Both the position numbers and the translations under genes were made by a program. Shown in pieces: positions 3,077 through 32,836 of a DNA stretch of 64,000 bases. This stretch comes from Trueperaceae bacterium (GTDB lineage Bacteria; Deinococcota; Deinococci; Deinococcales; Trueperaceae), in the NCBI GenBank assembly GCA_965213925.1, contig OZ243927.1, positions 2,400,001 to 2,464,000 on the forward strand, written 5' to 3'. Within the stretch, counting starts at the first letter, position 1. The number at the start of each line of letters is the position of its first letter. A model generated the notes under the pieces. The model saw only the letters and a program-made list of their open reading frames with translations, did no database searches and was not told the DNA's origin.

Positions 3077-3767
3077 CTCATTCTACAAAGCCAGCCAAGT
3101 ACATCCGTAGAAACCAGATAGACTGAACCTCATGAGGTTTACCGAAGCAGAACTTCGCGCAGCAGGGCTGTCAGAAGAGGAAATCGGGGCTATAAAAAGG
3201 CAGCATCTAGGCGGCACATCTGGCGGTGAAGGGCTTCGCTACGAAGAGGAATACGCGGTTTATCGGCTCATCACTGCTATGTTTGACTATATTGAGCAAG
3301 GCAGAGATTTTGGCGTTCTTCTTCAGGATATGTGTCCGGTTGATGACGTAGTGATTGACGCGGAGACTCGAGAATACTGCCAACTCAAGACGGGAGCTGC
3401 GGAAACGTGGGGCGCGAACTCCAGCAAATTAGAGAGGCAATTCAAGCTGCAAAAGAGGCTTTGCGAGGCTAGAGGTGACTCAGCATTTCTACTAAGGTTG
3501 GTCACGCCGCATGAGGAGCGCTACAAGAGCTTCAACGAAAACTTGCCCGCAGAGCTTAAACGCTGCACGGAAATAACGCTTTTTAGGCAGTTGGGGGGGC
3601 GCAGGGAGATGTGGTCCGAAACGAGTCCTTGCTACGAAGAACTCCGCGAACTCTGCGCGTATGAACCGGACAGCCCTTCGCACCGAGAGGTCGTCGTGGC
3701 GCTTTTCTATGACCGGCTTCAAGCAACGTCGCCCGGCGAATGGTATCTGAGCGCGATTTCTGACTAT

Positions 3768-3997
3768 TACACTGTCAACTAAGTATTGCTACCTCTTGTA
3801 TGTCACCCTGAGCCGAAGGCGTAAGGGTCTCGTTTGGTTACTGCCAAAACTTTGTAACTCGCATCTCGGCTGGTTGGGAATGAAAGACGAGATTCTTTCA
3901 TCGTTCATCCCCGAAAGGGGGCTCCACGGAGCCTGTCCTGAGCTTGCCGAAGGGTTGCGTTCAAAATGACATCACTCATTTTTTACTTGACGGTGTA
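3768..3997. mobile_element. MITE family A (230 bp)
   Basis: TIR tacactgtcaactaa / ttacttgacggtgta, CTAT on both sides, internal REP-like palindromes (tgtcaccctgagc...aaaatgaca; cctgtcctgagcttgccgaagg). Confidence 0.85.
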
Positions 3998-4145
3998 CTA
4001 TCTCAAAAGCAATGAAGATTTAGCCTTCGCTGTTCCGATGGTACTTAGCGACGTTGAGCCTCCGCCTCGGTGGGAAGAAGCCGTCGCAACTGCTGAGCGC
4101 ATTTCGGGCTTGACGCTACACATCAATGGTGATTTCTGCTACTAT

Positions 4146-4256
4146 TAGCAGGTATCATCTGGTTTGAGACACTCTCACTCTAAAAAACAGCGTCTAGCAC
4201 ACACGTTATGAGATGATACCTGCGGCATTCTCTCTCAGTATGTTGCGGAACTGCTA
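4146..4256. mobile_element. MITE family B (111 bp)
   Basis: TAGCAG...CTGCTA ends, CTAT on both sides, internal IR gcaggtatcatct/agatgatacctgc; homolog at 49180. Confidence 0.85.
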
Positions 4257-4394
4257 CTATAGTTACATTTACAATTCGGGCGCTTTTGATAGCGGAGCCA
4301 TCGGAAGAGTAGGGAGTGACAGGCTTCACAGGTTTTTGGACAGAATCGTGAATACTAAACCTGGTGTTATAGATGAGTTTTGGGAGCAACTGCT

Positions 4395-4921
4395 ATGAAC
4401 AGAACTATATCTGAGATGGTCACACCTAGAGCGGAAGATAGCCTCAACGAACTCTTGAACGCCAAGGGCGACGTACCCCACTATCAAAAAGCGATGACAG
4501 CGCTCGGTCAGGAGTTGGGGAGGCACATCTCGAGCCAACTCTTAGAAACCTCTTCTGTTTGTTTAGTATTCACCGTAGAAGATGCCGACTTCTTGGCGCG
4601 TGGTCTCTTAAAAAGCATCTCAGGAGTAGTTGACGCGGATAATATTCATGTTGTTTGCTTTTGGAACAAGCGTGAGCAATTGGGCGGCGTGAGCGTCGCT
4701 CCTATCATTCGCCGCTACATCGAGCCCTTTGACAAGGTGGACGCCGTCATCGTGCTCAAGTCAATCATCTCGAGTTCATGCGTTGTCAGAACGAATCTGA
4801 TGGAGATATTAAGCAAAGCGGAGCCAGAAAGGGTCTTCGTTACGGCTCCAGTTATGTTTGTAGGTTCTACTAAAATGTTGGAGCAAGAGTTTTCGGCGGA
4901 TATCGCTTCGAAGTTTGAGTA
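4395..4921 (+). pseudogene. UPRTase-like phosphoribosyltransferase-fold protein, N-terminal part
   Basis: ATG overlaps the nuclease TGA; TVEDADFLA, VCFWN, KSIISSSCVV, APVM; cut by IS982 after KFE. Confidence 0.75.
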
Positions 4922-5913
4922 ACCTAAGTTCGGAGTTTCCAAATAGCATAAGCATCTCCTAGAATGAGGGTGTTGAAGGCTCAAAAAAGGAGATGCTTAG
5001 GATGAGTTTACTAGAATTGTTCTGCGAGGTGGATGACTTCTGCAGAGGCTTCGCGCTCTGGGCACATAAACAGCAGCTTGCTGAGAGTAGAAAGCGTGGT
5101 CCTAAGTGCCGCTTGAGCGTAAGCGAAGTGATGACGATCATGATTCACTTTCACAGTTCAGGCTACCGAGACTTCAAGAGCCACTACCAGAAACACGTGT
5201 GCAAGCAGCTTAAAGGTGAGTTTCCAGCACTGGTATCGTACTCGCGCTTTGTAGAACTGACCTCAGAGGTTTTGCTGCCGCTTTGCGCCTATCTGCGAGC
5301 GAGTATAGGTGAAGTAACAGGTATCAGCTTTGTAGATAGCACGCATGTGGCAGTGCGCCACAACAAACGTATTGAACGCAACAAGGTCTTTGCAGGCTTA
5401 GCAGCGCGTGGCTGTACCGGCATGGGTTGGTTCTATGGTTTCGAGCTGCATCTCATCATCAACGATAAGGGTGAACTGCTCGCCGTCTATCTAACGCCTG
5501 GCGATACGGATGATCGCAAGCCGCTCGGTGTACTTACGCAAAACCTGTTCGGTAAGCTTTTCGGTGACAAGGGTTATCTCTCACAAGACCTCTTCGAAAA
5601 GTTCTTTGAGCAAGGCATAGAACTCATCACGACCATCCGCAAGAACATGAAAAGCGCGCTGAAGCTTGAGGACAAGATTCTCCTGCGCAAGCGGTTCATC
5701 ACCGTTCGTCCAGCTTGACTGGATCGAAACGGTGAACGATCAGCTCAAGAATATCTCGCAGATTGAGCACACCAGACACCGAAAGCCTGCTAACTTTGCT
5801 GTCAATCTCATCGCTGGACTCATCGCCTATCAGCACCAGCCCAAGAAGCCTTCGCTGAATCTGGGAGCTGACATTGACCCTCTCCCTGTCCTGATTTGAC
5901 TTCGAACTTAGGT
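4922..5913 (+). mobile_element. IS982-family element, copy 1
   Basis: TIR ACCTAAGTTCG / CGAACTTAGGT; near-identical to 31682-32673. Confidence 0.92.
4993..5899 (+). pseudogene. IS982 transposase with a 22-nt frameshifting insertion (5701-5722)
   Basis: FVDST, GWFYGFELH, GDKGY motifs; [14 protein letters not shown] split into two frames. Confidence 0.85.
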
Positions 5914-5937
5914 TACATAATGATAGGCGCCTTACTT

Positions 5938-6820
5938 ACGCCAATTCGGAAAAGATTTGACAGCGGGAGAAGTGAGGGTTGCAATGATGTATGCGCAAAA
6001 TCCCAACCCTCGAAGAGATTATACAAGCCGTCGAACGTTTACCCCTCAAGAAGCGTAGAAAAGCCCCTCAAGGACGTGCTCCTGTTTTTCCAGACTCGTT
6101 CATCATCGCCTTAGCGGTCTATCAGAAGCTGTCGAGTTTTCGCTATAGCCGGAAGATGCTTGAAGTTGCTGCATCGTTCGGCGTGGACGTACCTGTACCC
6201 TCAACGTTTTGTGAGCGTAAGCGCCTCCTGATAGGACAGATTATTCTCGCGGTTAAACAGCTTTGCACCGGGCATAACACGACGAAACAGCACCTCGACT
6301 CGAAGAAACTAGAAGTAGTAGATTTTGCCCGTGCTAAAAGGACCAAGCTTGCGGGCAGTTATGGGCGTGACCACGTCCATAACACCACCTTCTATGGCTT
6401 TCGGCTTCATGCGCGTGTGGACGATACAGGCAGACTCTGTGAGGTACTGCTGCGAGGCGCGAACGAACATGATGTTAAGGTCGCGCCTCGCCTACTAGAC
6501 AAACTCACTTACGCCATTGTAACCGCCGATAAAGGCTATATCAGCTCCGAGCTTAAAGCCGACGTTGCCTCCCAAGCGGTTGACCTTATAACCCCGCGCC
6601 GCAGCAACCAGCTACCCCCGCCCAAGCGTGAGCAGAGGCTTTACCAAGGACACCGCATCGTTGAGTCGGTCTTCTCGTCCTTGGATAGACTTGGACTCTC
6701 TGACAGACCCTACCGCTCGACGGTGGGCTGCATCCTGCACGTTTACACCACCTTGCTCGCTTACCAACTCAGCCGTTTAGGGGCATTTGAGCTTTGAATT
6801 TCCCTTTTCCGAATTGGGGT
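5938..6820 (+). mobile_element. Second, distinct IS982-like element
   Basis: 17-bp TIR ac(g/c)ccaattcggaaaag; 6-bp TSD TTACTT (5932-5937, 6821-6826). Confidence 0.9.
5991..6797 (+). CDS. DDE transposase (IS982-like), apparently intact
   Basis: HLDS, FYGFRLH, ANEHD, ADKGY, RIVESVFS. Confidence 0.88.
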   Translation: MRKIPTLEEIIQAVERLPLKKRRKAPQGRAPVFPDSFIIALAVYQKLSSFRYSRKMLEVAASFGVDVPVPSTFCERKRLLIGQIILAVKQLCTGHNTTKQHLDSKKLEVVDFARAKRTKLAGSYGRDHVHNTTFYGFRLHARVDDTGRLCEVLLRGANEHDVKVAPRLLDKLTYAIVTADKGYISSELKADVASQAVDLITPRRSNQLPPPKREQRLYQGHRIVESVFSSLDRLGLSDRPYRSTVGCILHVYTTLLAYQLSRLGAFEL

Positions 6821-6920
6821 TTACTTTATTATATTCACAAAGCCTTAACTATGAAGCGAGCAGCAGACCCTTGAGGACAGCGTAGCTTCAGCTTTAGGGG
6901 GCTGCAAGAAAGGAGAAGAC

Positions 6921-7085
6921 GTGAGCGACGCAGAACTCCGAAAATTGCATCAGCATTTGCGTAAGGCGTCACAGAAAACGGCGGGGCTTAGTGTAAAGAC
7001 GTTCCCGGAGATGATGACGATGCTCGCGCTGCGGCGCGAACTGAGCCGCGCGCTCAGCGTTGTTGAGCGGAGCATGAAAGATTGA
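6921..7085 (+). CDS. Small hypothetical protein (54 aa)
   Basis: AAGGAG RBS, GTG start, MSDAELRKLHQHLRK...SMKD. Confidence 0.45.
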   Translation: MSDAELRKLHQHLRKASQKTAGLSVKTFPEMMTMLALRRELSRALSVVERSMKD

Positions 7086-7207
7086 CGCGCTGGCGTTCGT
7101 GAGAGGGCTCGATATTTCGAATCTTTACACAGTGGTCGCCTCGCGCGGTGACGCCCTTCAGTTTTTCTGGTGTAAATAAATGGTGCCGAGGCGCTGACGA
7201 GCCACTT

Positions 7208-7393
7208 TCACTTAGGCTTGTTGTCCGTTTCTTTAGGCTTATTGCCCCGGCGAAACATGTAGAACGTCGCGCCTACGCCCCCTAGCAAGCTGAGCCCCAA
7301 GCTCCAGAAAAGGGGCGTGCCGAAAGCGAGAAGGCCGATAAAGAGGAGCGCCGTTGCGCCGATTCCCCAAAGCATCGCGTCTTCAAAATCCAT
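7208..7393 (-). CDS. Small 2-TM membrane protein
   Basis: Two hydrophobic segments and a basic tail. Confidence 0.6.
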   Translation of the reverse strand: MDFEDAMLWGIGATALLFIGLLAFGTPLFWSLGLSLLGGVGATFYMFRRGNKPKETDNKPK

Positions 7394-7600
7394 AGTTCCA
7401 TGCTGCTAGGAAAAGAGAGGCGTTGCAAGTGAAGGTACTACATTTATGAAGACATAGTTTATGAAGACATACGGACCCCACTTCACTCCCTATCACTGAG
7501 AGAAGGCCTCGACGACGTAATTCGATTTTGCAAGACGGCGAGTAACCGAGCACGCTACAAGATATTGACATTCCTGTGTTAAGAAGCTCACTATAGGGGT

Positions 7601-8392
7601 ATGAATCAGCGTCAGATTGACCTTGCCCTGCTCGCCGGAATCGGCGTTCTGCTCGTCGCCATCCTCGTGCTCGCCTTGAGCGCCGCGCCTATGCGGGGCG
7701 GCTCGGCGGAAGACCCGCCTAACGCGGAGCAGACATCGAACGACGCCGCGAATCCTTCTGGAAATCCGGCGGAAAACCAAGCGGAGCAAGGGGAAGCCGC
7801 GCAGAATCAGCCCTCGGAAGAGGTGAGCGCCGTGGACGTGACGCCCGAGGAAACGAGCGCCGCTGAGGGTGTGTCCGTAGAGAACGCGGAGGACGACGCG
7901 GCGCAAACGGCTGAAGGCGACGCTGCCGAGAGCGCCGCACCCTCGGAGGGAGAAGGAGGGGGCGAAGCGGACGCCGAGGGTGCGTCAGATGCAGAGGCGA
8001 ATACCGCGGATACTGAGGCGGGCACGGAGGGCGCGCAAGCGGGCGAAGAGGCGGCGGCTCCCGTAGAGGGGGCGCAAGCTACCCCGACTGGAGCGGTCAA
8101 CTTGAGCCGCGTCGGTTTCGCGTTCATCACCGCCGAGTCGGGCGCGTGCAGCATCCCCTTACAGCCCTGGCGTCAGGTCGCAGTGAGCCGCGACCTCTTG
8201 GCACAGTACGGCTGCGGCGCGACGGTCACGCTCGACTTAGCTGACACCGTCAACGGCACACAGCAAGTTACCGCGCAGATCGCCGACACGATGAACCCGA
8301 GTTTCGAACGCACCGTGAATATCTTTGTTGGGGAGGAGGAGCCGGCGCTCGAGTACGGCATCACTACCGGCACCCTGCAAGGTGGGCCATAA
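7601..8392 (+). CDS. Membrane-anchored protein with acidic linker and C-terminal 3D/DPBB-like domain
   Basis: N-terminal TM; QVAVSRDLL...IADTMNP...TVNIF. Confidence 0.7.
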   Translation: MNQRQIDLALLAGIGVLLVAILVLALSAAPMRGGSAEDPPNAEQTSNDAANPSGNPAENQAEQGEAAQNQPSEEVSAVDVTPEETSAAEGVSVENAEDDAAQTAEGDAAESAAPSEGEGGGEADAEGASDAEANTADTEAGTEGAQAGEEAAAPVEGAQATPTGAVNLSRVGFAFITAESGACSIPLQPWRQVAVSRDLLAQYGCGATVTLDLADTVNGTQQVTAQIADTMNPSFERTVNIFVGEEEPALEYGITTGTLQGGP

Positions 8393-8498
8393 GTTGAACC
8401 TCCACGTGTTTATGTACGAGTAGCTTTACGAAAGTTGAGAGGACTGAGGTAAAAGTTTTCTCTTAGTCCTCAGTCCTTTCCTCTTGTATTCTGTTCCT

Positions 8499-8828
8499 AT
8501 GCGCCGCTTCACCGCTCAAGGAACCAACACGGGCTTCGCCTGCGTCCACTGCGGCCGCGACGTGCCGCCCCTCGCGAACGGCTCGTACCGCAACCACTGC
8601 CCGCACTGCCTCTACTCGCTTCACGTCGACGTTTTCCCCGGCGACAGGGCGAGCGACTGCGGCGGCGTGTTGGAGCCCGTGAGCGTGGATTACAGCGGCA
8701 AAAAAGGCTGGGTCATCGTTCACCACTGCCAGACGTGCGGCGAGGTGCGGCGCAACAAAGCCGCGCTCGGTGACGCGGCAATGCCCGACGATTACGACGT
8801 GATTTTGGAGCTTAGTCAGCGAGCTTAG
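8499..8828 (+). CDS. RNHCP domain protein
   Basis: CxxC, YRNHCPHCLYSLHVD.PGDR. Confidence 0.9.
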   Translation: MRRFTAQGTNTGFACVHCGRDVPPLANGSYRNHCPHCLYSLHVDVFPGDRASDCGGVLEPVSVDYSGKKGWVIVHHCQTCGEVRRNKAALGDAAMPDDYDVILELSQRA

Positions 8829-8908
8829 CGAGGTACACAGACGAGGTATCTGAACGGCGTGGTTTTAAGCTGGTACCTAATCGCTCGCCCCTTTCGAAAG
8901 GACCCCTT

Positions 8909-9700
8909 ATGGCTTACGCACCGCCGGACGTCGAGACGCTCGAGCTGACCCACCAAGACGCCGCCCTGCGAATCACCCTCAACCGCCCCGACGTGCTCAA
9001 CGCCCTCTCGCTAGACCTCTTAGGTGAACTGCGAGACGCGCTGCAAGAGGCGGCGGCGGCGGACGACGTTCGCGCCGTTCTCTTGACGGGCGCAGGGCGC
9101 GGCTTCTCGGCGGGCGCGGACCTCGCCTCGACGCCCGTAGACGGAAACTTCGAAGACCTCATCGAAACTTACTACAACCCCGTCGTTCGGGCTATCGCGA
9201 CGATGCCTAAGCCCGTTATCGCGGGCGTCAACGGCGTGGCGGCGGGCGCGGGAATGTCTTTAGCGCTCGCATGTGACACGCGCTTACTTTCATCCGCGGC
9301 CGCCTTCGCCGTCGGGTTCACGGGCATCGGCTTGGTCATGGACGCCTCGGCGAGCTACTTTTTGCCGCGCCTAGTCGGCCGGGGACGCGCCTTCGAACTG
9401 ACCTACACCGGGCGAAAGGTGGGAGCAGAGGAGGCGCTAAATCTAGGCTTAGCCGAGCAAATCGTTCCGGCTGAGGACTTCGCGGAGACCGCCTGGGCGC
9501 TGACCCGGCGTTTGGCGCAGGGACCCACCAAGGCGTTCGCGCTGGTCAAAGAGGAGATCAACGCCTCGGCGCATCACGACTTAGAGGCGCAGCTCGGGCT
9601 CGAGGCGAAACTCCAAGAAGTCGCCTCGAACACCGCCGACGTGCGCGAAGGGGTCGCCGCGTTTAGAGAGAAACGCGCGCCGAACTTCAAGGGTGAATAG
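8909..9700 (+). CDS. Enoyl-CoA hydratase/isomerase (PaaG-like)
   Basis: GRGFSAGADL, NGVAAGAG, EGVAAFREKR. Confidence 0.88.
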   Translation: MAYAPPDVETLELTHQDAALRITLNRPDVLNALSLDLLGELRDALQEAAAADDVRAVLLTGAGRGFSAGADLASTPVDGNFEDLIETYYNPVVRAIATMPKPVIAGVNGVAAGAGMSLALACDTRLLSSAAAFAVGFTGIGLVMDASASYFLPRLVGRGRAFELTYTGRKVGAEEALNLGLAEQIVPAEDFAETAWALTRRLAQGPTKAFALVKEEINASAHHDLEAQLGLEAKLQEVASNTADVREGVAAFREKRAPNFKGE

Positions 9701-9716
9701 CGTTTGAGCATATTAG

Positions 9717-9931
9717 TACACCGTTGATCAAGTTTCGCAACACTGTTGTCACCCCGTTCACGTAGTCGGGCGTAGCCTTGCGAAGCGAAGCGCAGTCGAG
9801 GGGTCTCGCCTCGCAATCTCTCACGGAGGAGAAGGCGAATGCAGAGATTCTTTCACTCCACAGCCTGCCCTGAGCAAAGTCGAATGGGTTACGTTCAGAA
9901 TGACATTACTCATTCTTTAATTAACAGAGTA
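9717..9931. mobile_element. MITE family A, diverged copy
   Basis: tacaccgttga...ttaacagagta ends; shares gggtctcg, gagattctttca, agcctg.cctgagc and gttca.aatgacat.actcatt with 3768-3997. Confidence 0.75.
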
Positions 9932-9945
9932 GTTAGTATGGCGCG

Positions 9946-10488
9946 TCAGCGCTTCTTGCGCCGCCGCTTGCGTCCTTTCCACATGTGGTCAGGCTGGATA
10001 CCGTCCGCTAAGAGGTGGAGCCACTGCGAGAGGTAGTAGCCCGCGAGCGCGCCGACGGCGAGTTCTTGCCAGTTTTCACGTAAGGCTAGGCGGATGCGGA
10101 AGGTGTAGCCGAAAAAGGGCGAGAGCGCCGACACGCCCCACCCTAGCGCGAGCGCGACGAGCGCCATGTAGAGAAGGCGGGTCAGCGGACCAACGAGCCA
10201 GGAGTGCGAGAGCCCCCGGTGCTTGAAGAGCTTACCGTAAGGCACCCAGAGGAGCCCCAAGAGCCCCCAGTTACTCTTCGCGCGCACGCGGTTCTCGGCG
10301 AGGTCGAGGTCGGGGGTGACGAGATACGTGCCGGTAAAATACGCCGCCGTAAAGACGCCGACCGTTTCGGGCGCTAAGAGCACGTCGTATTCGGCGGTGT
10401 AGCCCTGCGACTGGGCGAGCGCGTAGCCGCTCACGAGAAGACCGAAGGCGGTGAGGTTGATGGCTTCGTGGGTGCGTCCGCTAGGCAT
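9946..10488 (-). CDS. DUF2227-family putative metal-binding membrane protein
   Basis: MPSGRTH, PDLD, HRGLSH, HLLAD. Confidence 0.85.
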   Translation of the reverse strand: MPSGRTHEAINLTAFGLLVSGYALAQSQGYTAEYDVLLAPETVGVFTAAYFTGTYLVTPDLDLAENRVRAKSNWGLLGLLWVPYGKLFKHRGLSHSWLVGPLTRLLYMALVALALGWGVSALSPFFGYTFRIRLALRENWQELAVGALAGYYLSQWLHLLADGIQPDHMWKGRKRRRKKR

Positions 10489-10754
10489 CTCTTCACCATA
10501 AAGGCTGAAGGTGAAAGGAGCCGTAAGGGAGTTCTCGCTTCTGTTCAGGCTCGAGCATGACTTCGCAGGATTAAAAAATCGGGGTCGTGGCGCTATCTGG
10601 AACGGTGCAAGGGTCAGATTAAAGGGTTGCAAAGGTCTGGTTGTAGTAGCGCGCCTCGACGGGAGTACGCAGAAACATTCGACTTGGAGCCGCTGACATC
10701 TCAACGGGAAGCTAACTCATGGTGACGCCTAACCCCGGGTTGCTACACTGTCCT

Positions 10755-12011: not shown

Positions 12012-12195
12012 CGTCCGTTCAATGAGGTGCGTCTGCTTTAGATGTCGAGCTGAGTCTGCGAGCTACCGAACTGCGCTCGAGAGGTCTTGAAAGATACCTA
12101 CACTACGAGTTCCTGGGCGTTCCTCAAGATAACCTCACGAGTCCCCAAGAGGTCGAGTGAGGTGAGCCGAGTGGTGAAGCGGTCAACCTACACGA

Positions 12196-12221: not shown

Positions 12222-12240
12222 AAGCGTTTAGAACGCGGTA

Positions 12241-24149: not shown

Positions 24150-24178
24150 TTGACGAATAGCGCATACGGGTGTATAAT
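24150..24178 (+). promoter_or_regulatory. Near-consensus sigma70 promoter
   Basis: TTGACG-N17-TATAAT. Confidence 0.7.
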
Positions 24179-24203
24179 ATTCCTTACTAGTCAACAAGAA
24201 GAC

Positions 24204-24229
24204 GCGCTCAGGACGAGCGCTTTTTTATT
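24204..24229 (+). terminator. Terminator immediately after that promoter
   Basis: gcgctc-aggac-gagcgc-tttttt. Confidence 0.65.
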
Positions 24230-24331
24230 GCTCTTTTGAGCGGCTGCCGCCCGAGTCTCATCTCTACAGTCTTCCTTACAATGTCTTTGCTCCTGAGTCT
24301 TTATCGTTTCAGGAGGAGGAAGGGGTAAGCT

Positions 24332-24502
24332 ATGAACGAAGACCAGCGCAGAGAGTACGACGCCTTGATTCGCGGCATCATGGACCAGGCCGAAGAGATG
24401 AAAAACCCGGAAGACGACGAAGAGATGCTCTTTAGTAGGGTGAGTGACCTCTCGAGCAAGGTGGACGAACTGCGAGACTTGCTAGGAACGGTCTACAGTT
24501 AA
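24332..24502 (+). CDS. Small acidic hypothetical protein (56 aa)
   Basis: AGGAGG RBS; MNEDQRREYDALIRG...LGTVYS. Confidence 0.6.
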   Translation: MNEDQRREYDALIRGIMDQAEEMKNPEDDEEMLFSRVSDLSSKVDELRDLLGTVYS

Positions 24503-24548
24503 AAAAGTAGACGATGTTGGGGGCGTGCACCAGAAGGTGCGCGCCCCT

Positions 24549-26339
24549 TCAGTTGCTCGTGAGGGCGTCTCGAGCCGCTCTACTGCCGGTCTGTACCCTC
24601 CACAGTCCCGCGTAAATTCCGCTACGCTCCAACAACGTTTCGTGCTGACCCGCCTCCGCCAACTGCCCATGTTCCAACACATAAATTTTGTCCGCGTTGC
24701 GAATTGTCGAGAGTCTATGCGCAATAAGGATGACGGTGCGGTTCTCCGAAATCGTCTCTAGCGAGCGCTGGATCGCCGCCTCGGTCTCGTTGTCCACCGC
24801 TGAAGTTGCCTCGTCCAGAATCAGAATCGGCGGGTCCTTAAGTACCGCCCTCGCGATCGAGATGCGCTGACGCTGCCCGCCCGAGAGTTTCTGCCCTCGT
24901 TCGCCTACAACCGTGTCGTAACCGTTCGGTAAACCCTGGATGAAGTCGTGCGCTTCAGCAATCTTGGCAGCTTGAATTACATGCTTTTCGTCCGCGTCCA
25001 AGTCACCGTAGACGATGTTTTCCCAGACCGTCCCGTGAAACAAGAAAACATCTTGGCTGACGAAGCCGATAGCTCCGCGTAGGCTTCGCATTCGCAAATC
25101 GCGCAAATCTACGCCGTCTAGCGTGACGCGCCCTGCGGTGGGGTCATAAAAGCGCAACAGCAGTTTGATGAGCGTGCTCTTGCCCGCGCCCGTCGCGCCA
25201 ACAATCGCAGTGGTCTCGCCTTCACGCATGGTCAGGGAGAGGTTGTTGAGGACGTTGGGGCCATCCTTGTAAGCAAAGCTGACCTCTTCTAAGCGAATCT
25301 CGCCGCGCACGTTTGCCAGAACTTTAGAACCGTCAGTCATACTCGAGTCCGTATCGAGCAGATTCAAAATCCGCCTCGTGGACGCCATCGCCCGCTGGTA
25401 AAGGTCCAAAGTTTGCCCGAGCCGCGTGAGGGGCCACAGAAGCCGCTGGGTCATGAAGACGAGCACGCTGTAGACGCCCACCGCCATCGCCCCGCTCGTC
25501 GTCAGGTAGCCGCCATATACAAGCGTTGCAATAAAGCCCATCACGATCGCCATGCGAATAACCGGCACGAAGAGCGAGCTGAGCCGAATCGCTTTCTTGT
25601 TGCTCTCGCGGTACTCATCACTGCCCGCTTCAACCCTTTTAGCTTCGAACGCCTCCGCTGCAAAGCTCTTGATGGTCGCGATGCCGCTCAGGTTATTCGC
25701 AAGCTGCGAGTTGAGGAGCCCGACCCTTTCTCTCACCTCCGCGTAGCGCGGCGCGATGCGCTTTTGAAAGCGGAGCGAGCCCCAGATAATCACGGGCATC
25801 GGCAAAAAGGCGAGCCACGCCACCCCCGGAGCCGCCGCGAAGAAGATCGCGCCGATGATGAGGACTGTTGTGACAAGCTGCACGATGTCGTTTGCGCCCA
25901 CATCTAAAAAGCGCTCCAACTGGTTGATGTCGTCGTTCAACACAGATAAAAGCCCACCCGTCGAGCGGTCCTCGAAGTACGCTAGCTCCAAGTTCTGCAC
26001 GTGGTCGTAGGTCTCTACCCGCAGTTCATGCTGTAAAGTCTGCGCGAGGTTGCGCCACAGCACCTCCGCGATGTAGTCCGTCACCGACTCCAAACCCCAC
26101 ACTAAGAGGGTGATCGCCGCCAACACCCAAAGCTGCGTCATCACGTCTGTGAGCCCGAACCGCGCCAAAAAGGAGTCTTGCTGCTGCACCACCGTGTCCA
26201 CCGCTACCCCGATGAGGAGAGGCGGCGTGAGGTCGAAGGCTTTGTTTCCGACTGAAGCGATAATGGACCAGACCAGGTAGGCGCGGTGGTTGCGGGCGTA
26301 GTGCCAGAGGCGCGTAAGGGGATGAGCGGAGTCCGGCAT
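24549..26339 (-). CDS. ABC transporter, fused permease/ATPase
   Basis: [24 protein letters not shown]. Confidence 0.93.
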
Positions 26340-26524
26340 GAAGTAGACTCTACCTCATGGACGCTTTAGGCCTCATTGCTTTAGCGCACGAAGTTGCCCG
26401 CCCTGTCTATCCGAGCGAGTCTTGCCAAGCGGGGACCCCGCCTCAACCATCACCGAAAGGCTTTAGTCTCCGTGATAGACTCATCTCACAGCGCTAAGGC
26501 GTCATCTAATATGGAGTCGCAACT

Positions 26525-27478
26525 TTGAAAATCGTTCTTCCAGGAGGTTCAGGGCAGGTTGGGTCGGTGTTGGCTCGAGCCTTTCTGTCAGACGGGCACG
26601 ACGTCACCGTGCTGAGCCGTCAGCCAACCCCTGGCGCGTGTCATACCGCCCTTTGGAATGGTAAAACCCTCGGTCCTTGGGCAGAGACGTTTGAGGGAGC
26701 GGACGTTGTCATTAACTTGGCGGGGAAAAACGTCAACTGCCGCTACACGCCGGAAAATAAGCGCGAGATCATGCGCTCACGGGTCGATTCGACGCGGGTT
26801 GTCGGTGAGGCTATCGCGCAGTGTAAGCGTCCACCTAAGCTGTGGCTCCAGTCGAGCACCGCGACGATTTACGCCCACCGCTACGACGCACCGAATGGCA
26901 AGATAACAGGCATCATTGGCGGTAACGAGCCCGACGCGCCTCGCAAGTGGGACTACAGCGTCGAGGTCGCTAAAGCGTGGGAAGCCGCCGTTGACGAGGC
27001 TAAGGTTCCCCGTACGAGAACCGTTCAACTGCGCTCCGCCATGATCATGAGCCCGGACGAGGGGGGTATCTTCGCGACGCTGCTCCGCCTCATCCAATCT
27101 GGGCTAGGCGGCAAGGCGGGCGACGGGCGGCAGTACGTGTCATGGATTCACGAGCGCGACTTCGTCCGCGCTCTGTACTGGCTCATTGAGCATGAGGAAT
27201 TAGAGGGTGCCATCAACCTCTCCTCGCCCAACCCCTTGCCCTACGCGGACTTCATGCGGCAACTGCGGGAGAGCGCAGGCGTACCTATAGGGCTGCCTGC
27301 AACCGAGTGGATGTTAGACATCGGCACGTGGCTACTCCGAACGGAAACGGAACTCGTTTTGAAGAGCCGGCGGGTTGCGCCGGCGCGGTTATTAGAGAGC
27401 GGCTTCTCGTTCGACTATCCTAAGTGGTCCGGGGCTGCGGATAACCTGTGCGAACGGTTTAAGAATCGGCGTGATTAG
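26525..27478 (+). CDS. TIGR01777-type NAD-dependent epimerase (DUF1731)
   Basis: GGSGQVG, INLAG, SWIH. Confidence 0.88.
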   Translation: MKIVLPGGSGQVGSVLARAFLSDGHDVTVLSRQPTPGACHTALWNGKTLGPWAETFEGADVVINLAGKNVNCRYTPENKREIMRSRVDSTRVVGEAIAQCKRPPKLWLQSSTATIYAHRYDAPNGKITGIIGGNEPDAPRKWDYSVEVAKAWEAAVDEAKVPRTRTVQLRSAMIMSPDEGGIFATLLRLIQSGLGGKAGDGRQYVSWIHERDFVRALYWLIEHEELEGAINLSSPNPLPYADFMRQLRESAGVPIGLPATEWMLDIGTWLLRTETELVLKSRRVAPARLLESGFSFDYPKWSGAADNLCERFKNRRD

Positions 27479-28024
27479 GTGAGCAAGAATCTCAAACGCA
27501 CCAGTAAGTTTTTAAGCCTCGTGCTGCGGCATAAGCCAGAAGTTGTTGACTTGTCGCTCGACGCTAGGGGTTGGGTAAACGTTGATACACTTCTTAGAGC
27601 GGCGCAGCGTCACGGACATCCGCTCACGAAAGACCTCTTAGATGAAGTCGTTTTCACTAACGACAAACAGCGCTTTGCTTACAGCCCGGACGGGTCGAAG
27701 ATTCGGGCGAACCAGGGGCATTCGGTGGCGGTGGACTTGGGGCTCGAGCCTACCGAGCCGCCCCCTGTGCTCTATCACGGTACGGTGGCAAAGGTTTTAG
27801 AGTCGATCAAAGCGTCGGGCTTAGAGAAGCGGAGTCGGCAGCACGTTCACCTTTCTGCAACGGTTACAATAGCCAAGCGCGTCGGCGCACGTCGCGGAGA
27901 GCCTGTCGTGCTGCGCATTGACGCAAAGAGGATGAGCAAGGAGGGCTACCTCTTCTACCGCTCGGCGAACGGCGTCTGGCTGACAGAAGAGGTGCCTCAG
28001 CGCTACATCGCCGTCAGTCCGTAG
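27479..28024 (+). CDS. kptA: RNA 2'-phosphotransferase
   Basis: LRHKP, IRANQGHS, LYHGT, RQHVHLS, NGVWL. Confidence 0.93.
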   Translation: MSKNLKRTSKFLSLVLRHKPEVVDLSLDARGWVNVDTLLRAAQRHGHPLTKDLLDEVVFTNDKQRFAYSPDGSKIRANQGHSVAVDLGLEPTEPPPVLYHGTVAKVLESIKASGLEKRSRQHVHLSATVTIAKRVGARRGEPVVLRIDAKRMSKEGYLFYRSANGVWLTEEVPQRYIAVSP

Positions 28025-28048
28025 AGCCTGCTCTTTGTGACGTTCGCG

Positions 28049-28264
28049 CTACTCGGAACCGCCCGGCAGGTTCTCGTCTGGCCCTTCACGTATCTCGGGC
28101 TCGGGTTGGTCGGGCACCTCTCTAGGCTCGGGCGGTGTTTCTAAGTCGTCTGGCGTCTCTATCGGTCTTTCGGTCGGTGGAGCGGCGGGCGCGTCCATCG
28201 GCGGTGCGGCGGGCGCGTCGTTCGGGCTGGGCATCGTGGGCTGCTGCGGGTTGTAGTCACTCAT
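28049..28264 (-). CDS. Small Pro/Glu-rich hypothetical protein
   Basis: GAGGGG RBS, repeated DAPAAPP. Confidence 0.55.
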   Translation of the reverse strand: MSDYNPQQPTMPSPNDAPAAPPMDAPAAPPTERPIETPDDLETPPEPREVPDQPEPEIREGPDENLPGGSE

Positions 28265-28339
28265 AGATGTATCCCCCTCTAATCTTACTATGCGCCACGT
28301 CGCGGTGAGAAACAACGTCCTTAGGCTACGATTGACCTT

Positions 28340-28831
28340 ATGGCGAAATTTAACTACGACCTAGACTTCGACAGCATCAACTTTCGCGAGCAGCCCGAAC
28401 TCTACCGCGTCGGCAGGGGGGAGCAGGGCGTTTTGAAAGTCGAGCCCTACAAGAGCGAAATCCTACCGCATTGGCGCTTTAAAACGCCCGACATTGCTGA
28501 AGAGTCTTCGGAGAAAATCCTGGAGATGTTCTACAAATATCTAGATAATGAGGACTTCGTCGGCGCGGACATGGCGCGCAAGTTCTTGCAGATGGGCTGG
28601 ACGCGCTCGAGGCGCTACGCTAACCACAAAGGCGGTAAGAAGTATAAGGGTCCAGTACCAGACGATAAAAAAGGGCAGAGCGGCGCACACGGGCGCGAAG
28701 AGAAGCCTCGAGAAATCGACGAGGAAAAAGCCAAGTCAGCGGAAATTTTTTACGAGAAGTACGTCGAGGCGCGGGAGAACGAGCGGTACAAGGAGATGAA
28801 AGAGGCGCATAAAAAGAGCAATGAGCAATGA
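28340..28831 (+). CDS. DUF4385 family protein
   Basis: YRVGRGEQGVL.VEPYKSEILPHWRFK; DMARKFLQMG. Confidence 0.88.
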   Translation: MAKFNYDLDFDSINFREQPELYRVGRGEQGVLKVEPYKSEILPHWRFKTPDIAEESSEKILEMFYKYLDNEDFVGADMARKFLQMGWTRSRRYANHKGGKKYKGPVPDDKKGQSGAHGREEKPREIDEEKAKSAEIFYEKYVEARENERYKEMKEAHKKSNEQ

Positions 28832-28898
28832 GTAAGGACAAAGGGTTTTCACTCATTGCTCGTTTCTGATTGCTCATTGCTTTTAACTCATTGCTGTT

Positions 28899-29147
28899 TT
28901 AGTCGATCCACCCATACGTATCTTTCTCTTCACCCGGCTGATACGTCCCCTCGCGTCCGCAGTTATCGCACTTCGCTTCGACTTCTGCCGCTTCCTTGCC
29001 GCCACCGCCCTCGGCAGGGTCGCTCGCGAGTTCGACGTGGACGTCCTCAGCGCCGCAGTTGGGACACTCAGTTTTCTCGTTGCGTTGGAAAGTTTGCCAG
29101 AGAGCCTCGAGTTCGTCGTGCGTGTAGTGTTCCTGCGTGGTTGCCAT
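28899..29147 (-). CDS. Small Zn-ribbon protein
   Basis: CPNCG...CDNCG. Confidence 0.7.
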   Translation of the reverse strand: MATTQEHYTHDELEALWQTFQRNEKTECPNCGAEDVHVELASDPAEGGGGKEAAEVEAKCDNCGREGTYQPGEEKDTYGWID

Positions 29148-29335
29148 ACTTCAAGTGTACGTGCAACCTTTCACAAAGAAAGTAGACCGCAACCCTGTAG
29201 CGCCGCGGAGAAGTTCACAGTTCTCCGCAGAGGACGCTCACAGAAAATATGACGCTGTCCTACCCTTTCACAAGAGGTGACTCGCTATAGTTCTTGGAGT
29301 GAAGTGCGCTTTTGTACGCATTTGGAAAGGAACCT

Positions 29336-30235
29336 ATGGCACACCAGGAGAACATGCTGGGCAAAGTTTGCTTAGTCACGGGCGCAAGCTCGGGTATCGG
29401 ACACGAAATCGCGAAGGCGTTGGCGAGAACAGGCGCGACTGTCGTAACGGTCTCACGTGGCGGCGGTAGCGGCGACGAGAAGACCTCGCAGATTCGGCGC
29501 GAAACGGGCAACAGCGAGGTTACTTTCATGCCCGCTGACCTCTCGTCTATGAATGAGGTTCGTAACCTCGCGGCGCGGTTCAAGGCGCGCTTTGACAGGC
29601 TCGACGTGCTCGTTAATAACGCGGGCATCTTTATGTCCGAGCGCAAGCTCACTGAAGATGGCTTTGAAAAGACCTTCGCCTTAAACCACCTCGCGCCCTT
29701 TTTGCTGACGCACCTCTTGATGGAGCCGCTTGTCAAGAGCGCTCCTGCGCGGGTCGTCACGACTTCATCTCGAGGCGAGAGCTTTGGCAAAATGCACTTT
29801 GACGACCTGATGTTAGAGAATTACGGCGGCTGGAAAGCCTATGGTCAGTCTAAACTCGCCAACTTGCTCTTCACCTACGAACTGAGCAAGCGTCTAGCCG
29901 GCACGGGCGTTGCGGCGAACGCCTTTCATCCCGGCGGTGTGGCGACGGGTTTCGGGCTCAATAACGAGGGGTTCGTGTCGCTGCTCTTCGGTACAGTGAT
30001 AAGACCGTTTCTCAAAACGCCTGCGCAGGGAGCGCAGAGCGGCATCTACCTCGCTTCGTCACCCGAAGTTGAAGGGGTTACGGGTCGCTACTACATTGAC
30101 GAGATGCCCGCGACCTCCTCCAAACGCTCCTATGACGTGAACGCGCAGCGGCGGCTCTGGACGGAGAGCGAGCGCCTCGTCGGGTTGAGCAAAGAGGAGA
30201 GTGCACCTCTTAATCTTGCGGGCGTGAGCGCGTAG
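29336..30235 (+). CDS. SDR oxidoreductase (retinol dehydrogenase-like)
   Basis: TGASSGIG, NNAG, YGQSK. Confidence 0.9.
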   Translation: MAHQENMLGKVCLVTGASSGIGHEIAKALARTGATVVTVSRGGGSGDEKTSQIRRETGNSEVTFMPADLSSMNEVRNLAARFKARFDRLDVLVNNAGIFMSERKLTEDGFEKTFALNHLAPFLLTHLLMEPLVKSAPARVVTTSSRGESFGKMHFDDLMLENYGGWKAYGQSKLANLLFTYELSKRLAGTGVAANAFHPGGVATGFGLNNEGFVSLLFGTVIRPFLKTPAQGAQSGIYLASSPEVEGVTGRYYIDEMPATSSKRSYDVNAQRRLWTESERLVGLSKEESAPLNLAGVSA

Positions 30236-30871
30236 ATGAGTTCTTCTAGTTCTGGTCAGCCGGGTAGAACCGTGCAGCCGGACTACCCCATTTTAGAGGT
30301 CATCCGAAAGCGTTGGAGCCCGAGGGCGTTCGCGGACAAACCCGTTGAAAAGGAGAAACTCCTGAGCGTTTTAGAGGCGGCGCGGTGGGCGTCGTCCTCG
30401 AACAACCGTCAGCCCTGGCGCTTTATCGTGGCGCAAAGAGGAGAGGCGAGCTTCGAGGAGCTTCTGGGCTGCCTGCGAGAGGGTAACGTCGGCTGGGCGC
30501 AGCACGCGCCCGTCCTCGTTTTGAGCCTCGCAGAGAAAGCGTTTCCCGCGAGAGGGGACAAGCCCGCTAGGGAGAACCGCCACGCTTGGCACGACGTCGG
30601 CGCGGCGGTCAATACCCTCATCTTGCAAGCGACCGCTCTAGACTTCTACGTCCACCAGATGGCGGGTTTCTACCCCGAAAAAGCGGCGGGAGCGTTCGAG
30701 GTGCCTGAAACCTTTGAACCTGTCGCGGTCTTAGCGCTCGGCTATTTAGGCGATCCCGATAGTCTGCCCGACGCCCTGCGAGAACGTGAAGCTGCGCCGA
30801 GGACGCGCCAGCCACTGAGTGACCTTGTGTTCGGAGAGCGATTTGGTGCAAGGTGGGAGGGGTTGGAGTAA
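30236..30871 (+). CDS. Nitroreductase family protein
   Basis: RWSPRAF, ASSSNNRQPWRF. Confidence 0.9.
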   Translation: MSSSSSGQPGRTVQPDYPILEVIRKRWSPRAFADKPVEKEKLLSVLEAARWASSSNNRQPWRFIVAQRGEASFEELLGCLREGNVGWAQHAPVLVLSLAEKAFPARGDKPARENRHAWHDVGAAVNTLILQATALDFYVHQMAGFYPEKAAGAFEVPETFEPVAVLALGYLGDPDSLPDALREREAAPRTRQPLSDLVFGERFGARWEGLE

Positions 30872-30918
30872 TACGGTTTCCGGGTGATTCCCGTAGGAAT
30901 CACCCGGAAACCGTATTA
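30869..30918. repeat. Perfect 23-bp inverted repeat (fold-back element / bidirectional terminator)
   Basis: taatacggtttccgggtgattcc-cgta-ggaatcacccggaaaccgtatta. Confidence 0.9.
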
Positions 30919-31107
30919 AATTCCCTCTGACTGCGGCATCACCAACCACAAGATGATGTAAAGAATCAGCCCGCCCCCCGAGAAAAGCGTCAGGAGCACG
31001 AATACGACGCGCACCAAAGTCGCGTCGATGTCGAAGTAGCGTGCTAAACCGCCGCATACCCCGGCAATCTTCTTGTCTAAGCTGCTGCGTACCAACCTTT
31101 TTTCCAT
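30916..31107 (-). CDS. PspC domain protein
   Basis: [12 protein letters not shown]...YIILWLVMP. Confidence 0.88.
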
Positions 31108-31258
31108 TTTATCCACCCCTTTTCTCAAAGTTCGTTCAAACCGTACTCTAACAGAAAAGGATGAACGTTCGGCGAAGTGGGAAAGCTGCCTGGTGCACCC
31201 GCTAGGAGCAGAGAGGTTCATCTGCTGACTTTACGCCCACAGCTCACGCCCAGACCTC

Positions 31259-31612
31259 TTATTTTGCGTGGAGGAACTCGAGCCGATTTCCGAACACGTC
31301 GTGCGTGTGAAAACGGCGCACGTTAGGAATATCGTCGCTCCATCGGAGAGAGAAGCCAGCGTCCTCTAACCTCTTCGCAAGTCCATCTAAATCTTCTACC
31401 CGAAAGGCGGGATGCGCTTTTTTAGCGGATGAGAAGGGCGTTTCGACGCCTAGATGAAGCTGATGTTCACCGACTTGAAACCAGACGCCGCCTTTAGACT
31501 TTAAGAGGTCGGGTTTCTCGAGTTCTTCTAACCCTAAGATTTCGCCGTAAAAGTAGCGAGCGTTGTTCTCTTCTCCTTGGGGCATGGCGAGTTGAACATG
31601 GTCGAGCGTCAT
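31259..31612 (-). CDS. VOC/glyoxalase family protein
   Basis: LDHVQL, QLHLG, HPAF, GNRLEF. Confidence 0.88.
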   Translation of the reverse strand: MTLDHVQLAMPQGEENNARYFYGEILGLEELEKPDLLKSKGGVWFQVGEHQLHLGVETPFSSAKKAHPAFRVEDLDGLAKRLEDAGFSLRWSDDIPNVRRFHTHDVFGNRLEFLHAK

Positions 31613-31681
31613 AAGTGCCTCCAGGCTCGAGTCTGTACCTCTTCTATATGATTTGAAAGCGTTAAAATCATTCTAAATGTA

Positions 31682-32673
31682 ACCTAAGTTCGGAGTTTCC
31701 AAATAGCATAAGCATCTCCTAGAATGAGGGTGTTGAAGGCTCAAAAAAGGAGATGCTTAGGACGAGTTTACTAGAATTGTTCTGCGAGGTGGATGACTTC
31801 TGCAGAGGCTTCGCGCTCTGGGCACATAAACAGCAGCTTGCTGAGAGTAGAAAGCGTGGTCCTAAGTGCCGCTTGAGCGTAAGCGAAGTGATGACGATCA
31901 TGATTCACTTTCACAGTTCAGGCTACCGAGATTTCAAGAGCCACTACCAGAAACACGTGTGCAAGCAGCTTAAAGGTGAGTTTCCAGCACTGGTATCGTA
32001 CTCGCGCTTTGTAGAACTGACCTCAGAGGTTTTGCTGCCGCTTTGCGCCTATCTGCGAGCGAGTATAGGTGAAGTAACAGGTATCAGCTTTGTAGATAGC
32101 ACGCATGTGGCAGTGCGCCACAACAAACGTATTGAACGCAACAAGGTCTTTGCAGGCTTAGCAGCGCGTGGCTGTACCGGCATGGGTTGGTTCTATGGTT
32201 TCGAGCTGCATCTCATCATCAACGATAAGGGTGAACTGCTCGCCGTCTATCTAACGCCTGGCGATACGGATGATCGCAAGCCGCTCGGTGTACTTACGCA
32301 AAACCTGTTCGGTAAGCTTTTCGGTGACAAGGGTTATCTCTCACAAGACCTCTTCGAAAAGTTCTTTGAGCAAGGCATAGAACTCATCACGACCATCCGC
32401 AAGAACATGAAAAGCGCGCTGAAGCTTGAGGACAAGATTCTCCTGCGCAAGCGGTTCATCACCGTTCGTCCAGCTTGACTGGATCGAAACGGTGAACGAT
32501 CAGCTCAAGAATATCTCGCAGATTGAGCACACCAGACACCGAAAGCCTGCTAACTTTGCTGTCAATCTCATCGCTGGACTCATCGCCTATCAGCACCAGC
32601 CCAAGAAGCCTTCGCTGAATCTGGGAGCTGACATTGACCCTCTCCCTGTCCTGATTTGACTTCGAACTTAGGT
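31682..32673 (+). mobile_element. IS982-family element, copy 2
   Basis: Same TIRs and same 22-nt insertion as copy 1; at least 2 substitutions relative to copy 1. Confidence 0.92.
31753..32659 (+). pseudogene. IS982 transposase with the frameshifting insertion
   Basis: As in copy 1. Confidence 0.85.
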
Positions 32674-32674
32674 T

Positions 32675-32836
32675 GAGTATGTTTATTTCGCTCAAGACGA
32701 AGAGAGGGACCCCTCAACCAACATTGTTAATCCGGGGATTGGGGGCAATGTCTATGAGCTTCTAGGGTTTGAGAATCAAGAGGTGAAAAACCGCTATACT
32801 CCCCGCCTCATTAACGAGCGTCAACTACGCTTGTAG
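32675..32836 (+). pseudogene. C-terminal part of the UPRTase-like gene begun at 4395
   Basis: EYVYFAQDEERDPSTNIVNPGIGGNVYELLG...RL*, in frame across the TGAGTA duplication. Confidence 0.85.

Follow-up and report, generated by a model that had tools for sequence, protein, structure and literature searches.

A thrice-interrupted copy of a conserved nuclease and UPRTase-fold gene pair, a candidate defence system, in a Trueperaceae contig

We analysed a 64,000-nt window of contig OZ243927.1 (assembly GCA_965213925.1), to whose positions all coordinates below refer, and within it a disrupted module of two genes, one encoding a putative Cap4-like nuclease (gene 1) and the other a protein with the predicted fold of uracil phosphoribosyltransferase (UPRTase; gene 2). 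The window copy is a dead copy of a conserved two-gene operon, a pseudogene with three breaks that lies in a low-GC island. Gene 1 is inactivated by two small repeat-element insertions and gene 2 by an IS982-like insertion sequence (IS), which now bounds, on one side, an IS / 25.8 kb / IS block resembling a composite transposon. The fragments of the module and the elements that break it are as follows.

3132..3767, + strand: gene 1 fragment A, codons 1–212, covering a putative Cap4/LmuA-like nuclease domain with VDDVV and QLK, then the first part of the C-terminal domain
3768..4001, no strand assigned: insertion 1, 234 bp, resembling a miniature inverted-repeat transposable element (MITE), with terminal inverted repeats (TIRs) TACACTGTCAA / TTGACGGTGTA and ACTAT on each side
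4002..4145, + strand: gene 1 fragment B, 48 codons, placed by tblastn with P0002
4146..4260, no strand assigned: insertion 2, a 115-bp hairpin-bearing repeat element with an internal 13-bp inverted repeat
4261..4398, + strand: gene 1 fragment C, 45 codons and stop, placed by tblastn with P0002 and from the sequence
4395..4920, + strand: gene 2 N-terminal fragment, 175 codons, of the putative UPRTase-fold partner, with TVEDAD and KSIISSSC motifs
4921..5914, + strand: IS982-like copy 1, 994 bp, with a perfect 12-bp TIR and its transposase split into 241-aa and 77-aa open reading frames (ORFs)
5915..31680, no strand assigned: block between the IS copies, 25.8 kb, GC 0.55–0.64, mostly housekeeping-type genes and outside the module
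31681..32674, + strand: IS982-like copy 2, 994 bp, in direct orientation, its transposase likewise split into 241 aa and 77 aa
32675..32836, + strand: gene 2 C-terminal fragment, carrying NPGIGGNVYELLG; coding resumes at 32678/32679 and the stop is at 32834–32836

The module and its three insertions

With the insertions removed, the five fragments form a 305-aa ORF and a 227-aa ORF that are colinear with the intact homologs P0002 (306 aa) and P0005 (227 aa), respectively. Using a coordinate script, joining 3132–3767, 4002–4145 and 4261–4398 gave 305 codons and a single terminal stop for gene 1, and joining 4395–4920 to 32679–32836 gave 227 codons and a single terminal stop for gene 2, with the gene 1 stop overlapping the gene 2 start in the ATGA at 4395–4398. 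As it stands in the window, the first ORF of gene 1 extends from 3132 to 3782 (216 aa), its stop falling within insertion 1. The homologs of gene 1 obtained by word-index search were P0002, which is intact and 81% identical, P0003 (305 aa, 47%) and the partial P0004 (201 aa). When P0002 was compared to the window by tblastn, its residues 1–212 matched 3132–3767 (E 7.5e-117, in a high-scoring segment that continues into insertion 1), residues 213–261 matched 3999–4145 and residues 259–305 matched 4252–4392 (E 2e-43 for each); residues 1–175 of P0005 matched 4395–4919 with 91% identity (E 2e-101), and residues 175–227 matched 32675–32833 with 96% identity (E 2e-29). An earlier note on this DNA had rebuilt two ORFs with overlapping stop and start from these five fragments; tblastn colinearity and the in-frame joins bear out that reconstruction, and the motifs CPVDDVV, YCQLK and IVNPGIGGNVYELLG are present in the window fragments as the note described them.

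The note had also called the two insertions in gene 1 MITEs, which fits part of what we found. Insertion 1 is MITE-like, with 11-bp TIRs that contain one mismatch and a predicted DNA fold of −34.8 kcal/mol; a second copy was not found within the window. Insertion 2 belongs to a repeat family, since a related copy, 73% identical, is present between genes at 49181–49291. That copy also identifies CTGCTAC as the right end of insertion 2, so an apparent 10-bp direct repeat around it is only partly a target duplication. The third break is not a MITE but the 994-bp IS. Both small insertions entered directly after the pentamer ACTAT (3763–3767 and 4141–4145), and this shared entry point suggests a common target preference, though insertions 1 and 2 are unrelated in sequence.

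The two IS copies differ at 2 of 994 positions, and their transposase matches the Pfam family DDE_Tnp_1_3, with the nearest plasmid matches, which are distant, annotated as IS982 family. The IS / 25.8 kb / IS unit as a whole has GAGT on both outer sides, and of the inner flanks of the copies one, ACAT, is the reverse complement of the other, ATGT. The GC content of the module island is 0.45–0.50, compared to 0.55–0.64 in the enclosed block. We rejected a simple inversion as the origin of the block, because both IS copies and both halves of gene 2 are in direct orientation; composite transposition would leave the same picture as a circle recombining into one IS, and misassembly at the repeat may also account for it. 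A second, different DDE transposase gene (DDE_Tnp_1_3 / DDE_Tnp_1, 268 aa) lies directly after IS copy 1 at 5991–6794, forming an IS pile-up at the edge of the island.

Three insertions thus fall within ~1.6 kb, compared to one further transposase gene and one further small-element copy in the rest of the window. This local excess, which had been taken as a sign that the module was costly to its host, is equally expected from neutral decay of an already inactivated module and is also expected if the elements prefer the AT-richer island. Since neutral decay or target preference yields the same pattern, the three insertions do not establish such a cost.

Protein families, pairing and predicted complex

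We collected the gene 1 family by exhaustive HMMER search with P0002 (E ≤ 0.001), which returned 164 cluster representatives, mostly of 280–310 aa, and aligned 66 of them (alignment A3). Residues D72, Q84, W93 and Q107 are invariant in these 66 sequences, residues G27, G28, G34, Y37, D71 and K86 are each conserved in at least 90%, and a DD..QxK motif was found in 58 of 58 full-length copies of gene 1 at the loci described below. The family profile matches the N-terminus of the Hachiman nuclease chain 8zue_A (E 0.002), in an alignment that pairs GG..G..YE and DD...QxK (DD...QVK in 8zue_A). The AlphaFold2 (AF2) model of gene 1 has a mean predicted local distance difference test score (pLDDT) of 96.1, and the top nine Foldseek matches in the PDB were chains of LmuA, HamA and Cap4 (E 1.8e-3 to 4e-2; TM score 0.33–0.39), led by LmuA 9nxx_D (E 1.8e-3) and HamA 8zue_A (E 3.1e-3, rank 2), with LmuA 9hr5, Cap4 6vm5, 6wam and 6vm6 and HerA-DUF4297 9c1m among the further matches. 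At E ≤ 0.1, 20 of the 66 members reach Pfam Cap4_nuclease (PF14130), the best at 3.7e-6, and an Atlas feature search returned clusters carrying ABC-3C CTD1 and Cap4_nuclease; P0002, P0003 and the window fragments matched 0 Pfam families at the curated threshold. Two features of the PF14130 superfamily appear in gene 1, a predicted PD-(D/E)xK core fold and one or more acidic residues with an (E/Q)xK motif. Judged by profile and by modelled fold, then, gene 1 probably belongs to the Cap4 nuclease superfamily as a short and distant member that resembles LmuA and retains the catalytic motif, in agreement with the Cap4-like assignment made earlier from the motifs.

The gene 2 family comprises 239 proteins at E ≤ 0.001 (word-index search), mostly of 225–240 aa; 3 of the 239 are named as a phosphoribosyltransferase (PRTase) of some kind (JGI), and the others are hypothetical or unnamed. 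Its profile matches the Sulfolobus solfataricus UPRTase (1vst) at E 3.2e-4, and the AF2 model of gene 2 has a pLDDT of 95.8. In the Foldseek search, the first 24 ranks listed were UPRTases or chains of the same fold (E 1.3e-9 to 8e-6; TM score 0.62–0.77), with alignments to UPRTases spanning 210–228 columns and other type I PRTases scoring lower, and the Atlas structure rows gave a TM score of 0.75. Nine of 50 members reach Pfam UPRTase (PF14681) at E ≤ 0.1, the best at E 1.4e-4, and P0032 scores below threshold with both Pfam UPRTase (11.7 bits, cut-off 27) and NCBIfam PRK00129 (12.1, cut-off 114). In the model, gene 2 shows the type I PRTase fold with the N- and C-terminal elements specific to UPRTases. 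These profile and structure matches indicate that gene 2 most probably has the UPRTase fold, and the proposal that the partner is UPRTase-like, based on its C-terminal tail, holds in that PGIGG in this tail falls opposite PGLG when aligned to a UPRTase of known structure.

The predicted pocket of gene 2 is strongly conserved but remodelled, and looks functional without being canonical. In an alignment of 50 sequences (A1), 24 positions are invariant, including E62-D63-A64-D65, K122, D182 and P194-G195-x-G197-G198. The acidic motif by which UPRTases bind phosphoribosyl pyrophosphate (PRPP) consists of Asp-Pro followed by a phosphate loop. In the alignment to 1vst, vvPGiG of gene 2 sits on ILPGLG, the invariant K122-S123 lies opposite D-P of the PRPP loop, GG.VY stands where UPRTase has GDAGDR, and the invariant EDAD cluster is new. 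A pattern for the canonical acidic PRPP motif was found in 0 of 80 locus copies of gene 2. With the acidic motif replaced by Lys-Ser, ordinary PRPP chemistry (phosphoribosyl transfer) is doubtful, and a different chemistry would be compatible with the alignment; the suggestion in the earlier note that the partner makes a pyrimidine nucleotide is disfavoured on the same ground.

A pattern scan of 185,579 species genomes identified 197 gene 2 relatives, and the best 80 of these 197 loci are used throughout. They belong to Cyanobacteriota (45), Pseudomonadota (23), Bacteroidota (3), Myxococcota (2), Planctomycetota (2), Actinomycetota (1) and Bdellovibrionota (1), with 3 unplaced. By a local hidden Markov model (HMM) of alignment A3, 73 of the 80 loci, from at least seven phyla, have a gene 1 homolog immediately upstream of gene 2 and on its strand; a script detected 72 of them, and L007 was recognised on visual inspection once an over-extended gene 2 start was discounted. 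The two genes overlap by 4 bp in 50 of the 73 paired loci. Both plasmid copies are also paired, their genes annotated in RefSeq as hypothetical proteins, and a 6.7-kb stretch read from one of them, a 10.4-kb cyanobacterial plasmid, holds a CyRepA1 replication gene, a helix-turn-helix gene, two hypothetical ORFs and the pair. A tblastn search with P0002 gave no match among plasmids; the HMM nonetheless detects gene 1 in both plasmid loci. The co-occurrence of homologs on which the earlier note made its proposal depend is thus observed as a tight pair. No third conserved gene was found across the 80 loci, no fused nuclease-UPRTase proteins were found among proteins of 399–2000 aa (weak evidence), P0005 gave no tblastn match in 50,697 phage records, and a viral structure library gave only generic PRTase-fold matches to gene 2, with TM scores below 0.5.

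The seven unpaired loci are L049, L055, L004, L051, L035, L066 and L068. L049 has no upstream sequence, and in L055 gene 1 has apparently been deleted compared to its Coleofasciculus relatives. We rejected the upstream ORFs of L004 (318 aa) and L051 (361 aa) as forms of gene 1, with hhalign probabilities of 0.2 and 0.9 percent, respectively. These ORFs, which precede gene 2 at 5986–6939 of L004 and 5670–6752 of L051, may be alternative effectors; neither matched a PADLOC or gene 1 profile, and the L004 ORF, the one searched against Pfam, had no match there.

The two proteins are predicted to form a heterocomplex through the C-terminal domain of the nuclease. Models of gene 1 with gene 2 scored 0.91, 0.91 and 0.90, compared to 0.26 for the best control, and agreed in at least 97% of contacts, with a pLDDT of at least 91 for the partner; the score mark was attained by 116 of 157 solved complexes and 2 of 215 mismatched pairs, counts that are rough because our own alignments were used. 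In the predicted interface, the C-terminal domain of gene 1 (157–306, with strand 265–274 against hairpin residues 101–111) meets a β-hairpin (90–111), a helix (133–140) and the C-terminus of gene 2, and the hairpin would correspond to the flexible arm that stands beside the active site in UPRTases. PDB searches returned no solved complex of the two families, so it seems unlikely that the model recalls a solved structure.

Such a tight predicted complex, together with translational coupling by the 4-bp overlap in 50 of 73 loci, would also suit a toxin-antitoxin (TA) or addiction module in which the nuclease is the toxin and the UPRTase-fold protein the antitoxin, serving mainly to stabilise plasmids or genomic islands rather than to sense phage. 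The copy on the 10.4-kb cyanobacterial plasmid and the MNT/HepT TA pair next to the window copy point the same way. We nevertheless consider an addiction module unlikely: the components of a type II TA pair are usually smaller than these two proteins, a DNA-binding domain is absent from the partner, and many of its 24 invariant positions fall in motifs aligned with the UPRTase pocket, which argues that ligand binding or catalysis matters. This explanation also overlaps with abortive-infection defence and is compatible with it.

Defence context and relation to known systems

To describe the surroundings of the pair, we scanned its neighbours at the 80 loci, at most two ORFs per side and none shorter than 100 aa, 280 ORFs in all, with PADLOC-DB v2 (2023), 140 at E ≤ 1e-10, 135 at E ≤ 1e-20 and 5 at E ≤ 1e-8. 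Matches to TnpB/Cas12f-like proteins and TnsB were excluded as transposon-type, and matches to kinases, ABC proteins, RNase T/DEDDh, RtcR and Cas-associated PD-DExK as generic. A specific defence-model match at E ≤ 1e-30 lies within two ORFs of the pair in 29 of the 80 loci (36%), distributed as follows.

L004: GajA and GajB (PADLOC); McrBC by Pfam
L006, L029, L042, L066, L077: PDC-* candidate families only
L012, L065: type I specificity subunit
L013: HEAT-ARM_XIII
L016: Dsr2
L023, L025: HEC-02A
L033, L080: Hma components, on both sides
L040, L047, L052, L056, L058, L059, L070: type IIG / DrmMI-like
L046 (also L052, L056, L058, L070): DruE-like helicase
L050: type III restriction endonuclease
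L057: PDC-M01 / PtuA-like
L063, L064: BREX PglZ on one side, PglX on the other
L067: Cas1 / Cas4
L072: PD-Lambda-2_B
L073: IetA

Several of these loci have a distinctive layout. L004 carries a complete Gabija system directly upstream and McrBC downstream. In L063 and L064 the pair is a cassette embedded in a type 1 BREX locus, flanked by pglZ and pglX, which are on the other strand. In cyanobacterial L052, L056, L058 and L070 the pair lies between a DrmMI/type IIG-like methylase of 1280–1470 aa and a DruE-like helicase of 1270–1810 aa; L082 (plasmid NZ_CP097481.1) is listed with these methylase/pair/helicase loci, and L046 has the helicase only. The start of the helicase gene overlaps the gene 2 stop in L058, which suggests a larger operon.

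Layouts of this kind raise the question of whether the pair is autonomous or serves as accessory effector cassette in a larger system built on methylase and helicase (DISARM, Druantia, BREX-like, or type IV-like restriction of modified DNA). Dependence of this sort would account for the several cyanobacterial loci in which the pair separates the methylase from the helicase, for the same arrangement on a Chroococcidiopsis plasmid, and for the pairs inside BREX (L063, L064) and Hma (L033, L080) loci. We think it improbable, as no third gene is conserved across the 80 loci, the proteobacterial, Bacteroidota and myxobacterial copies have neither helicase nor methylase, and BREX and similar loci commonly hold embedded cassettes that are independent of them.

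Compared to known systems, the pair resembles Lamassu most closely in its nuclease. LmuA is the best structural match of gene 1 (9nxx_D, 9hr5) and provided the only PADLOC match of a homolog, a weak one (P0003, E 0.049), and in both proteins an N-terminal Cap4-like nuclease domain is followed by a C-terminal partner-binding domain, predicted as such in gene 1. However, gene 1 is shorter, at ~300 aa compared to chains of 377–391 aa, and the pair has no conserved LmuB/LmuC ATPase related to structural maintenance of chromosomes (SMC) proteins, its partner instead being a UPRTase-fold protein; LmuB gave no match among the 280 neighbour ORFs at the PADLOC thresholds used. Hachiman shares the two-gene layout of nuclease and partner, and HamA 8zue_A is both the profile match and the rank-2 fold match of gene 1, but the HamB partner is a helicase, whereas a helicase accompanies our pair only in a cyanobacterial subset and is not conserved. 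The Cap4 effector of CBASS (cyclic-oligonucleotide-based anti-phage signalling system) has the nuclease fold predicted for gene 1 (6vm5, 6wam), and 20 of 66 members reach PF14130 at E ≤ 0.1. Unlike CBASS, the pair includes no CD-NTase and no SAVED/CARF domain: neither protein gave a PADLOC or Pfam match to these, the ~300-aa gene 1 has no region matching SAVED, and activation by cyclic oligonucleotides is not indicated.

On the side of gene 2, Upp (PF14681) shares the whole predicted fold (TM score 0.62–0.77) and the aligned C-terminal PG(I/L)G hood loop, but differs in having Asp-Pro where gene 2 has K122-S123 and GDAGDR where gene 2 has GG.VY, and the invariant EDAD cluster is new in gene 2. 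PRTase-fold proteins also occur in anti-phage systems: in the accessible part of a recent preprint (10.1101/2025.09.30.679545), the PRTases known from defence are described as one clade of canonical PRTases, with effector roles in type III retrons, ShosTA, PsyrTA and Ophion (OpnC), and the accessible part of PMC13092281 mentions a PRTase in a figure legend. As described there, ShosT, PsyrT, the type III retron effector and OpnC resemble gene 2 in fold but are themselves canonical effectors or toxins, whereas gene 2 has lost the acidic PRPP motif and is paired with a nuclease as separate effector. The partners also differ, being a DprA-like protein (ShosTA/DprA-PRTase), a reverse transcriptase with non-coding RNA, or rSAM and PHP proteins in ShosTA, PsyrTA, type III retrons and Ophion, compared to a putative nuclease here. 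PADLOC models, PsyrT included, gave no match for P0005, P0007 or P0032 at E ≤ 5 apart from noise; Ophion, which is outside PADLOC v2, is set apart from the gene 2 family by its published description alone, as far as that is accessible.

In a literature search, with subscription journals outside its scope, no description came up of a nuclease of Cap4, DUF4297 or Lamassu type that has a PRTase or UPRTase as its partner. The earlier view that the pair matches no named system is upheld by this result, by the negatives with Pfam, NCBIfam and PADLOC (2023) models and by the hypothetical-protein annotation in RefSeq.

Our preferred reading, to which we give a probability of about 0.6, is that the conserved pair of nuclease and UPRTase-fold protein is an undescribed anti-phage or anti-mobile-element system of a Lamassu/Hachiman-like kind, of which the window holds a decayed copy. 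The defence role is assigned by association only, and to that extent the role proposed in the earlier note stands, through the 29 of 80 loci with strong PADLOC matches within two ORFs; defence systems account for no more than a few percent of the genes in a bacterial genome, and the 36% is judged an enrichment against this general figure rather than against a matched control set. Several further points weigh on the other side. All of the support is computational. Fifty-one of the 80 loci have no strong defence match within two ORFs, 5 of the 29 defence loci rest on unvalidated PDC-* families, and several others show single components. The fold matches of the nuclease are marginal (E 1.8e-3 and weaker; TM score 0.33–0.39), and curated Pfam, NCBIfam and PADLOC (2023) models give no significant family for the five fragments or for the intact homologs. 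The gene 2 motif counts in the 80 loci are biased, the loci having been retrieved with patterns made from the same motifs. The gene 2 tree largely tracks phyla, with 8 label changes compared to a minimum of 6; cross-phylum transfer is not prominent, and is less than many defence systems show.

Some loci, moreover, have housekeeping neighbours, such as ribosomal L13/S9 (L021), MnmG/GidA (L009) and PsbQ (Coleofasciculus). These neighbours, the UPRTase fold of gene 2 and the UvdE gene adjoining the C-terminal fragment in the window would suit a housekeeping pair that serves pyrimidine salvage or DNA repair and has no role in conflict. We regard this as very improbable: the pair is rare (197 relatives in 185,579 species genomes), its surroundings differ from genome to genome, gene 2 has no canonical PRPP motif, the nearest fold relatives of gene 1 are all defence nucleases, and here the pair was dispensable, having been broken three times.

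Proposed mechanism and further features of the window

In Lamassu, Hachiman and CBASS, a Cap4-type nuclease stays inactive until a partner or ligand changes its assembly state. By analogy, the UPRTase-fold partner may hold the nuclease of gene 1 inactive in the predicted complex, while its salvage-enzyme pocket would detect infection through a nucleotide or other small molecule. Arrival of such a ligand, or of a protein cue, at the pocket would then free or activate the nuclease, which would go on to cut or degrade DNA. A role of the partner as nucleotide sensor is plausible on this analogy. Should experiment confirm it, the pair would be a nuclease-plus-keeper defence module with a new kind of keeper.

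A more specific version, which we regard as less likely than not, is that the UPRTase-like subunit represents a new class of small-molecule sensor that directly gates an LmuA-like nuclease, and that the LmuA effector is portable across unrelated sensors. The remodelled pocket would in that case read a phage-induced change in pools of pyrimidine or other nucleotides (modified bases, PRPP, alarmones), and the LmuA effector would plug into at least two unrelated sensors, the SMC-like LmuBC and the UPRTase-like protein.

If the pair does protect against phages, it would be a system whose sensor is a repurposed nucleotide-salvage fold, and the type of nuclease effector known from Lamassu, Hachiman and CBASS would be controllable by a fourth, unrelated kind of partner. 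How immune proteins read changes in nucleotide pools during infection would then become testable. The family is compact (~530 aa in total), widespread in Cyanobacteria and Proteobacteria, and provided with confident models of the subunits and of the complex, which makes it experimentally tractable. For the window itself the message is modest, a thrice-broken pseudogene in a low-GC island.

Upstream of the module, the following genes were recognised.

1328..2365, + strand: DndC-like PAPS-reductase gene (PADLOC DndC, E 3.5e-92), in the same low-GC island (GC 0.45–0.50)
2361..2684, + strand: MNT nucleotidyltransferase (Pfam)
2786..3013, + strand: short HepT-like ORF, 76 aa (Pfam)

Among these context genes (1328..3013) there is also a PADLOC PDC-S09 match (E 3.2e-35), and no recognisable DndA, DndB, DndD or DndE adjoins the DndC-like gene. 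A 240-aa ORF without a family match (583–1302) precedes the DndC-like gene, whose end overlaps the MNT start by a few bases. The HepT-like ORF matches profile positions 27–119 of 120 and follows the MNT gene after a 100-bp gap; it may be truncated, or its start may be mis-set. At the other end of the module, UvdE is encoded next to the C-terminal fragment of gene 2. The 25.8-kb block between the IS copies contains a gene for a Tpt1/KptA RNA 2'-phosphotransferase (27479–28021) and an RNHCP-domain gene (8484–8825). Farther along the window, a 252-nt inverted repeat with 72% complementarity (45884–46135 / 62486–62737) lies over two ORFs of ~160 aa on opposite strands, which are probably diverged paralogs.

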